7,324 nt of DNA, taken from the IMG/VR virus record IMGVR_UViG_2690316286_000009. One strand, written 5' to 3'. The first letter of the stretch is position 1. Every line of letters starts with the position of its first letter. The stretch comes from a virus. Lineage: Duplodnaviria > Heunggongvirae > Uroviricota > Caudoviricetes. A program made the position numbers. This document shows positions 1-3,000 of this stretch, piece by piece.

Positions 1-3000
1 AACGACGCGTAATTAATTCTTCAATATCATCCGTTCTGGCTGACTAAATCCTGTACTTCCCGAACCGTCTGCTCAAAACGTTCAGTCTCCAGCTCCTGCA
101 ATCAGGTCACCCGGACGACTGCTAGCGCTGATTATCTGCTGCAGCATTTCTGCCGGTTTTTCGCACGGATGTTTCCCGGGATAGAACTGCACCGGTTTAT
201 GCGTCCACACATCGGTATACGGCACCTGCACCGTCACGCCAAAATACCGCCGCAGATGTTTATATTCACTCAGCAGCTCCGCATACTGCCGGTTCAGTGA
301 GGTATACGTATCCACCAGCTGGTGGTGGAGCTTTTCCAGTTCACCACGCCGATGCTTCTCTTCTGCCACCCGGGCAAACAGCGCCTGTAATTTCAGATAA
401 TCGCTTTCATTCGGCAACTGCCACTGACCGGCACTGAACCAGTGCGACACCATGTTTTTCTTTCCTGTGGCATCTGCAATCTGTTTTGCCGTTATCCCCA
501 GGGCAGCTCGCGCATCACGAAAGTAAGAAATCAGCGGGGCCATCACATGCTGTTTCAGTGCACTGCCCTTCGCCGCATACCCGGCATCTTTCGGACGATA
601 CGGCCCCTGATAATGTTCCGCGAACAGAATGCGCTCTGTGGCGGGGAAATACGCCCGCAGGCTTTCCTTGTTGCATCCGTTCCAGCGTCCGGACGGCTTC
701 GCCCAGATAATATGGTTCAGCACACTGAAGCGTTCACGCATCATGATTTCGATATCAGATGCCAGGCGATGACCACAGAACAGGTAAAGACTTCCGGCAG
801 GTTTCAGCACCCGCCAGAACTGCGCCAGACACTGGTCCAGCCACTTCAGGTAATCATCGTCGCCCTTCCACTGGTTATCCCAGCCCTCAGGCTTCACTTT
901 AAAGTACGGCGGGGGCGTGACTATCAGGTCAACAGAATTTTCGGGTAACGACCGGATAAATTCCAGGCAGTCGGCGTTGATTAACTCACAACTGGATATT
1001 TTTACAGTATTAAGCATGGATCATTAAGCCTGTCTCTGATAGGCTCATTCTGCTTTTGCGCAAAGCAGTGGGCCTGAGGTTTGCTTGTGAACCCAACGCA
1101 TGAGCAGATGGCTGGTGGGTGCCCCTAACACCCACCAGCCGCCCATTTACCACAAATAAAAAAGCCTTCACTGCGGAAGGCGTCTGTAACAACCGAACTG
1201 ATANNNNNNNNNNNNNNNNNNNNNNNNNNNNNNNNNNNNNNNNNNNNNNNNNNNNNNNNNNNNNNNNNNNNNNNNNNNNNNNNNNNNNNNNNNNNNNNNN
1301 NNNNNNNNNNNNNNNNNNNNNNNNNNNNNNNNNNNNNNNNNNNNNNNNNNNNNNNNNNNNNNNNNNNNNNNNNNNNNNNNNNNNNNNNNNNNNNNNNNNN
1401 NNNNNNNNNNNNNNNNNNNNNNNNNNNNNNNNNNNNNNNNNNNNNNNNNNNNNNNNNNNNNNNNNNNNNNNNNNNNNNNNNNNNNNNNNNNNNNNNNNNN
1501 NNNNNNNNNNNNNNNNNNNNNNNNNNNNNNNNNNNNNNNNNTGAAAGACAGGTATTCACCGCCACCAGCGCGTTTACTGTACTGACGCGATTTCAGTCAT
1601 AAAAAACCCGCTCGGCGGCGGGTTGTAGAAACTCTTCTAACGTCAGGCATAAAACGCCCATCGTTATGACGAATTTACCACAGATTCCGGAAAAATCAAC
1701 CTAGTTACCTTTTTTAACTGCCGCTCAGCCCATGCTTCTTCAATATCAAACCGGGTCACCAGCGCATCATAGAATTTCTTAACTGTTTTTTCCCATGACG
1801 CGCGTGTTATCTGGTTTGTCACCTCGCATATAGCATTAAATGCCTCCGTTGATGGTAGTCTTTCATAGCCACGACCACCACAACGCTGGCAGTCTCTGAT
1901 AACAGGCATACCACGTTTTACCGACTCTTCACGATGAATGGCGACACCACGCCCACGGCAATCCTTACAGGCGGTGGAAACCTCACCCTTTCCGCCACAC
2001 TCCGGACAGGCAACTTTTACCACCTCCCTGACTTTTTTCCATTCTTCCCAGTAAGACGGATACACACCTTTCGTACACTTTGCCCATACCGGCGGCTTAC
2101 CATCCGGATACTGGATCTTGTTTGTAAAAACCTCGCTTTCAATAAATTTTTTTCCGTGACAGCAGGGGCACTGTTTTTTGCTCGCCGCGCTACGGGCATA
2201 ATCTTCAAACGCATACGAAGCCATAATACGCATCACTGCCGGTTTTATTTCTGCCGGGAGTTTTCTTAACGCCGCCACGCGATCACACCGACTGAGTGCA
2301 TATTCTGTCAGCAATTCTGTTGCCCGCTCTCTGTCATTCATACTAATGCCCATTTTCCCAAGGAACGCAGAAACCCCCATCTCAGCCCGATTCTGTGTCA
2401 TGCCCTGCGCGGCCATCACATCAGTGATACTCAGCGCATCTTTCGACGTTGAGGCCGATGCATCAGTCAGGCCGGGGGATTTTGGGGAGTAGTATTTCGG
2501 TAAATCTTCCAGTTTCATTTTTTGACCTGCTCTTCATGCATTATGGGGTAAATCTTCACCCCCAGACGTCCACCAGATACTGGCTGACCACGAACGATAT
2601 TGATTTCATCAAACTGCTCATCGTCCATTAGCAACCCCGCATGCGTCAGCGCATCCAGCGGCGCTTTCAGAATATTGTCCAGGTCACGGCGGCGCTTATC
2701 CGGTGGTTCTGCAATAATTTTTATTGCCAACCTTCCGGACAGGCTTAATTTCAGCCGCTGCTGGCGAACAATAAGCGCCACTGCCCGGCGATAACGCTCC
2801 CCGGCTTTTGATACAAAATATGTGCTGCCACGACGACGCCAGTAAGTGTTCACCGTCGGCGGGTAAGGTAAAACAAATTCTATGCGCTCGGTCATTTATG
2901 CTTTCCACTTCAGAACACCCGAATTTCTCGCGTGCATTAAAAAACGAATCAGCAACAACAGCTGACTGCCGTGTTTCTCTTCAAAATCTTTTACTCCGGC

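Follow-up and report, generated by a model that had tools for sequence, protein, structure and literature searches.

Has the DNA methyltransferase gene at one end of a Shigella sonnei prophage scaffold decayed, is it a working enzyme of unusual form, or do its apparent lesions have a technical origin? The stretch of DNA analysed here (the window; 7,324 nucleotides (nt), IMG/VR record IMGVR_UViG_2690316286_000009) carries, downstream of the antiterminator gene Q, a methyltransferase open reading frame (ORF) that is truncated and altered in its catalytic motifs. The window is the whole of scaffold CXCS01000170.1 from the draft S. sonnei assembly GCA_001260675.1, in reverse complement and with its runs of N included. 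Sequence comparison identifies the gene as a lambdoid-prophage late-region DNA methyltransferase of the M.EcoGII family, a membership established through its descent and not through its function. M.EcoGII and M.EcoGI are non-specific adenine DNA methyltransferases from prophages of E. coli O104:H4 C227-11 (Murray et al. 2018, PMC5778455). Each of the two lesions occurs on a single short-read draft scaffold, and both are probably artefacts of sequencing or assembly.

The features on which the question turns are as follows (window coordinates).
82..1017, minus strand: truncated methyltransferase ORF of 311 amino acids (aa), without motif I; matches PF01555; deposited as CSQ03958.1, 'DNA methylase [Shigella sonnei]'.
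904..915, minus strand: motif IV, PPPY (CCC CCG CCG TAC); codon 35 (915..913) is CCC (Pro), not GAC (Asp).
95..96, minus strand: deletion junction, at which 68 bp of the intact alleles are lacking, from alignment to the E. coli O121 copy and 11 S. sonnei copies.
82..84, minus strand: premature TGA after four out-of-frame codons (G A G D stop) past the junction, a frameshift product.
27..95, minus strand: out-of-frame remnant of the original C terminus, ELETERFEQTVREVQDLVSQNG; codons 95..30, original stop 29..27.

The 311-aa ORF ends in ...GDLIAGAGD (SSRPGDLIAGAGD), with its TGA read at 84-82 on the minus strand. In a profile search it matched the beta-class N6A/N4C methyltransferase family PF01555 (N6_N4_Mtase) at 88.8 bits, against a cut-off of 26.7, over profile positions 1-185 of 221, so that the C-terminal part of the domain is absent. 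The FxGxG of motif I, expected C-terminal to the target-recognition domain (TRD), is missing together with the 68 nt that code for DFFMGLGSTVKAALALGRRAIGV, and motif IV, which should read (D/N/S)PP(Y/F), reads T-P-P-P-Y. The original prediction, that the ORF stops where the motif binding S-adenosylmethionine (AdoMet) should continue, is thus borne out, with motif I deleted outright.

Alignment to intact homologues reduced the damage to one clean 68-bp gap and two adjacent mismatches. The intact reference was the 352-aa copy from E. coli O121 (WP_073861036.1), from which the window gene differs by that gap and by one tandem mismatch. At the 96/95 junction the window lacks ATTTTTTCATGGGGTTGGGTTCGACAGTGAAAGCGGCACTGGCGCTCGGGCGTCGTGCAATTGGCGTT; in the homologues these 68 nt code for DFFMG(S/L)GSTVKAALALGRRAIGV, which comprises the entire AdoMet-binding motif I (FxGxG) plus the next strand. 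A loss of 68 nt, a number not divisible by three, throws translation out of frame and brings in a TGA four codons later. What had been proposed as an internal deletion or frameshift, or else a sequencing error, is therefore pinned to a single frame-shifting deletion. The suggested +1-frame continuation held in its greater part. Translation of 101..27 on the minus strand gives LQELETERFEQTVREVQDLVSQNG followed by a stop, in which ELETERFEQTVREVQDLVSQNG is identical to residues 331-352 of the intact homologues; the original last 22 codons thus survive in another frame, and the remnant has 100% nucleotide identity with all homologues. The leading 'LQ' of that translation does not belong to it, being upstream codons read out of frame.

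In motif IV, positions 918..904 of the minus strand read ACG CCC CCG CCG TAC (TPPPY), whereas the homologues read ACG GAC CCG CCG TAC (TDPPY). The change is a tandem substitution, G to C at 915 and A to C at 914, which yields D35P; a proline at the catalytic position had been correctly read from the window, and all homologues have aspartate there. At this site GGACCCGCCG was present in 11 of 11 S. sonnei copies and in the E. coli O121 copy. Over 1,203 nt, nothing beyond the 68-bp gap and the two mismatches separates the window from the S. sonnei allele; the lesions are exact differences from homologues and involve no statistical pattern. In amino-methyltransferases AdoMet is bound by FxGxG, and the Asp of (D/N/S)PPY has a part in placing the amino group that is the target. 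The D35P change, and the loss of motif I with the correct C terminus, would each be expected to abolish activity.

We also considered how such changes might arise in DNA. Slippage between direct repeats was ruled out, as alignment at both ends of the deletion found neither a direct repeat nor microhomology, and inspection of the sequence revealed no quasi-palindrome that could account for the GA to CC change.

The distribution of the two alleles is extremely uneven. An exact-protein look-up returned one public record of the 311-aa product, CSQ03958.1, on the window's own contig. By contrast, 11 further copies in nine other S. sonnei assemblies, whose contigs were fetched through the neighbouring Q protein, match window positions 1-1203 save for both lesions. 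The intact 352-aa S. sonnei allele occurs on at least 997 contigs and appears in 4,314 index blocks; contigs longer than 1 Mb are found in 94 of these, including closed chromosomes such as that of 53G (HE616528.1, around 2,097,391-2,106,449). A further intact copy lies at 4677-5947 of a sibling contig, L008. Products bearing a single lesion (D35P only or the deletion only) were absent, by exact look-up, from a collection of 15 billion proteins. The methyltransferase gene is carried by about 1,900 of 5,426 complete E. coli genomes; among the matches listed in these genomes, 1,268 nt of a record corresponded to 1,200 nt of the query, in two pieces. Megablast queries centred on the junction (46 nt) and on the CC variant (51 nt), with neither of which intact sequences can seed a match, found no instance of the 68-bp junction and none of the CC variant in the same 5,426 genomes. 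Exact-pattern scans likewise found neither lesion in the GTDB representative genomes, IMG/VR or the JGI metagenomes.

These searches disposed of two further candidates. A lineage or family sharing either lesion was rejected, as megablast and pattern scans found nothing and the protein look-ups returned only the window's own record. Copying from a paralogue, whether by gene conversion or through a collapsed repeat, was also rejected, since no other S. sonnei or E. coli copy contains the CC or the deletion.

The scaffold on which the lesions lie has its own irregularities, the first of which separates the gene from its upstream neighbours.
1204..1541, no strand: run of 338 N, a scaffold gap that parts the 1.2-kb methyltransferase piece from the remainder of the scaffold.

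Because the window equals the deposited record, Ns included, this run and a second one (5087-5112) are scaffold gaps of the deposited sequence. Where the scaffold has 338 N and 26 N, the sibling assemblies show 223 nt and 7 nt (ATCTGTC), respectively, and the gap sizes in the scaffold are thus wrong. The 223 nt include most of a 65-aa ORF (phrog_331) whose 3' end corresponds to window positions 1168-1203. The methyltransferase piece is accordingly a separate 1.2-kb sub-contig across an N gap, with the deletion 95 nt from the scaffold end. Scaffold gaps often adjoin this gene in sibling assemblies as well; one S. sonnei scaffold (L004) holds two full copies of the gene, and another (L007) holds a full copy and one interrupted by an insertion sequence (IS). 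The scaffold end, at window position 1, falls 14 nt short of a transfer RNA (tRNA) cluster that lies at 5962-6211 of a sibling contig (L008), and this repeat probably caused the assembly to break there.

The remainder of the scaffold joins two prophages. Window positions 5178-7324 (DUF4014, HNH, a 221-aa ORF and DUF551) are identical to a prophage that six closed S. sonnei genomes carry next to dbpA, with IS1 and an antiterminator of DUF1133 type after hok, whereas positions 1542-5177 (sok/hok, Rem, DUF968, RusA and Q) are identical to a different prophage. The switch occurs through a 50-nt identical stretch (5178-5227), the sole sequence that the two prophages share at that point, and the arrangement was not seen in the six closed genomes. 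Either the assembly followed a chimeric path or the prophage is a recombinant, with a chimeric join the probable case. The other 5.7 kb of the scaffold shows no private differences: it agrees fully with sibling or closed genomes except at one lineage single-nucleotide polymorphism and in the switch region. A hypermutator, or a globally poor consensus, was rejected on the ground that these 5.7 kb match.

Taken with the sequence context of the lesions, this points to errors that would have arisen in the sequencing and assembly of a repeat piece of 1.2 kb, present in multiple copies, with which a gapped and partly chimeric scaffold ends. The GA to CC change may be an Illumina miscall in a GGC context that was carried into the consensus. 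On the plus strand of the window it reads GGCGGG|TC to GGCGGG|GG, so that the miscalled bases repeat the preceding base just after GGC, and this fits the signature of Illumina sequence-specific errors, in which miscalls copy the preceding base downstream of GGC (Nakamura et al., PMC3141275). GGCGGG occurs only three times, counting both strands, in the 1.27-kb region. The 68-bp deletion, for its part, may be a false join or a false gap closure. The deleted 68 nt contain four GGC triplets, the highest GGC density of the region, and GGC-rich tracts cause loss of coverage (PMC3141275). The authors of the Sanger high-throughput pipeline (Velvet, SSPACE and GapFiller) describe its SSPACE and GapFiller steps as greedy and liable to join sequences falsely; they report 4-10 misassemblies for each genome and about 1-2 mismatches in every 100 kb, and S. 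sonnei was the species with the most fragmented assemblies (PMC5320598). Two independent real events within 1 kb of otherwise identical sequence would, moreover, be improbable a priori.

Several points weigh against an artefact. We infer it from the assembled sequence and not from reads, and we infer the Velvet, SSPACE and GapFiller origin of this assembly from its accession style and gap pattern. At a typical coverage of about 100x, strand-specific miscalls seldom win the consensus. The 68-bp loss has no shared k-mer at its junction and is no classic de Bruijn-graph artefact. Both lesions also fall exactly on the two catalytic motifs, as selection for loss of function would give, although the coding of these motifs is GC- and GGC-rich, which provides a technical reason for both lesions to fall there.

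The alternative that survives best, although we consider it rather unlikely, is that the lesions are real and that an M.EcoGII-type gene was very recently inactivated in one isolate, as an ordinary, private pseudogene. The deposited sequence does carry both lesions, both strike catalytic motifs, and S. sonnei prophages are degraded and riddled with IS elements, some of which lie inside the prophages considered here. Prophage pseudogenes are commonplace in Shigella. Both lesions could lie in one gene copy, or each of two copies could carry one and the assembler could have collapsed them; as some scaffolds contain two copies, two hits could mean two inactivated copies. Either a defective prophage would be decaying neutrally, or selection would have acted against an adenine methylase that is non-specific and toxic. 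M.EcoGII is reported to be prophage-borne, silent in the lysogen and deleterious to the cell if constitutively expressed (PMC5778455), so that loss of function could be favoured.

Against a real inactivation stand the rarity and the form of the lesions. The lesioned allele is a singleton set against the contigs and index blocks, counted above, that carry an otherwise identical intact allele, and the protein collection contains no single-lesion intermediate. No private change is found elsewhere on the scaffold, a second hit would bring no gain once the first had killed the enzyme, and the ends of the deletion share no microhomology. The substitution bears the Illumina error signature, and the deletion lies close to the scaffold end. 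If the lesions are real, they are at most a very recent private event, and their consequence is merely that this isolate cannot make the methylase from this copy.

A stronger version of the same idea, that both lesions are real and were selected, is very improbable. Here the isolate would have eliminated its prophage methylase activity by independent hits, possibly one per copy, and the driver would be either leaky expression that had turned toxic or an acquired restriction system dependent on N6-methyladenine (m6A). Were this so, the locus would offer a natural example of counter-selection against M.EcoGII-type enzymes.

That the gene encodes a functional, non-canonical methyltransferase, either a short PPPY form without an FxGxG of its own or one in which programmed frameshifting restores the C terminus, is effectively excluded: the ORF is long, still scores as PF01555 and is followed by its original C-terminal 22 codons intact in another frame, but motif I and the next strand are physically gone from the DNA and no frameshift or recoding can restore them, motif IV lacks the D/N/S residue required for positioning the target amino group, and neither feature turned up in a second sequence in any collection searched, so that nothing points to selection having preserved such a form.

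We therefore return to an artefact of sequencing or assembly as the preferred explanation, and anything beyond such an artefact or a private pseudogene has only a very slight probability. The idea of an inactivated orphan methyltransferase was right in that two disabling lesions are present in the sequence. It did not hold in two respects: the gene is a member of the M.EcoGII family, which is already characterised, and not an uncharacterised orphan; and because the lesions are private to one draft scaffold while the intact allele is found on some 1,000 or more contigs, evolutionary decay is less likely than artefact. The companion suggestion of a genuine short variant found no support, as a search for homologues of the same length that end in AGAGD and contain TPPPY returned none and the product is restricted to one contig. 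The biological weight of the locus is small, given a known family and lesions limited to one draft assembly. It does counsel caution, because a multi-copy prophage gene that looks decayed near the end of a gapped short-read scaffold may not reflect evolution, and sibling genomes and reads are needed to tell.

The surroundings of the gene bear on how its intact form would be expressed, and they include the following features.
1664..2518, minus strand: antiterminator Q (PF03589; 284 aa), parted by the gap from the methyltransferase, to which it lies upstream.
1154..1181, minus strand: terminator-like hairpin, GCCTTCCGCAGTGAAGGC, and after it a T run; located where the 65-aa phrog_331 ORF ends, upstream of the methyltransferase.
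4932-5126 and 4782-4994, minus strand: sok (Rfam RF01794, 73.8 bits), overlapping the 5' region of a Hok/Gef ORF (PF01848).

RusA, DUF968 and Q lie upstream of the methyltransferase in the window, where the linkage to Q crosses the scaffold gap. In sibling loci the order is RusA, Q, the 65-aa ORF (phrog_331), methyltransferase, three tRNAs, SASA esterase and holin. The upstream genes in the window and the downstream genes in the sibling loci together place the gene in the late region of a lambdoid prophage. The three tRNAs of L008 have anticodons CAT, TCG and TCT and are annotated as Ile, Arg and Arg in E. coli O121. This set resembles ileZ-argN-argO, which is typical of lambdoid phages of the Shiga toxin (Stx) type.

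The hairpin site upstream of the gene corresponds, by alignment, to window positions 1164-1181 (4699-4716 of L008), and another terminator-like hairpin follows Q. The presence of terminator-like hairpins between Q and the gene, with the gene's position, fits its lying in the Q-dependent late transcript. Together with the published silence of M.EcoGII in the lysogen, this position suggests that the methyltransferase would be made only after induction, once antitermination by Q opens up the late transcript, and that the enzyme might then cover progeny phage DNA with m6A and so blunt restriction in the next host.

The gene that follows Q varies among the loci compared (L002-L011 and L019-L028). 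In several S. sonnei assemblies the 284-aa Q is followed by DUF3927- and PmrD-like genes and not by the methyltransferase; the Q that precedes the methyltransferase in closed genomes is a variant of 273 aa; and in one contig (L008) the 284-aa Q is linked to the methyltransferase without Ns. These variants indicate that several near-identical late regions coexist in S. sonnei and confuse short-read assemblies.

Further upstream, the two sok and Hok/Gef intervals form a hok/sok type I toxin-antitoxin locus, in which the sok match spans the 26-N gap.

Comparison with known systems sets the intact allele beside three groups of enzymes. YhdJ (PRK11524), M.RsrI and CcrM have the PF01555 fold and the order of motifs in common with it, and the best solved-structure matches (M.RsrI, CcrM and others) align to both its DPPY and its FxGxG halves. 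They are distant relatives, however: scores fall far short of the NCBIfam equivalog cut-offs (111 against 292 bits for PRK11524), and they are sequence-specific enzymes whose central region is unlike that of the intact allele.

Much closer are the methylases of Stx2a-converting phages and Escherichia phage 1720a-02, with 94.3-94.6% protein identity to the intact allele over 352 aa (94.6% for phage 1720a-02 and for many of the Stx2a-converting phages). Phage 1720a-02 has itself been named as the carrier of a close relative of M.EcoGII (PMC5778455). In these phages the gene sits in the late region, between Q and the tRNA, stx, nanS-p and lysis genes, and the order is the same as in S. sonnei: Q, small ORF, methyltransferase, tRNA cluster, SASA esterase and holin. 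Their copies are intact, whereas the S. sonnei prophage is disrupted by IS elements and no stx was seen in the loci examined.

M.EcoGII itself is related to the window gene through the intact sibling allele, which equals that gene save for the two lesions. The intact S. sonnei allele is identical to M.EcoGII at 324 of 349 positions (93%) over the full length, a figure that slightly underestimates the identity because the M.EcoGII sequence came from a machine-read supplement (PMC11551740) in which a few optical character recognition errors are probable (for example, NHHIWA and GRRRAIG). The two differ within motif I, which reads FMGSGS (GGG TCG GGT) in M.EcoGII and the E. coli alleles and FMGLGS (GGG TTG GGT) in those of S. 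sonnei. The FxGxG pattern is kept in the S. sonnei alleles (6780-6800 region of L003) despite the leucine in place of serine. M.EcoGII is available as a commercial enzyme. Its family, of non-specific N6-adenine enzymes, has a beta-class layout, with an N-terminal DPPY, a central TRD and a C-terminal FxGxG (PMC5778455), and the intact S. sonnei allele shares both that layout and the prophage setting. Where M.EcoGII combines DPPY with FxGxG and a proper C terminus, the copy in the window has PPPY and lacks both FxGxG and the correct C terminus.

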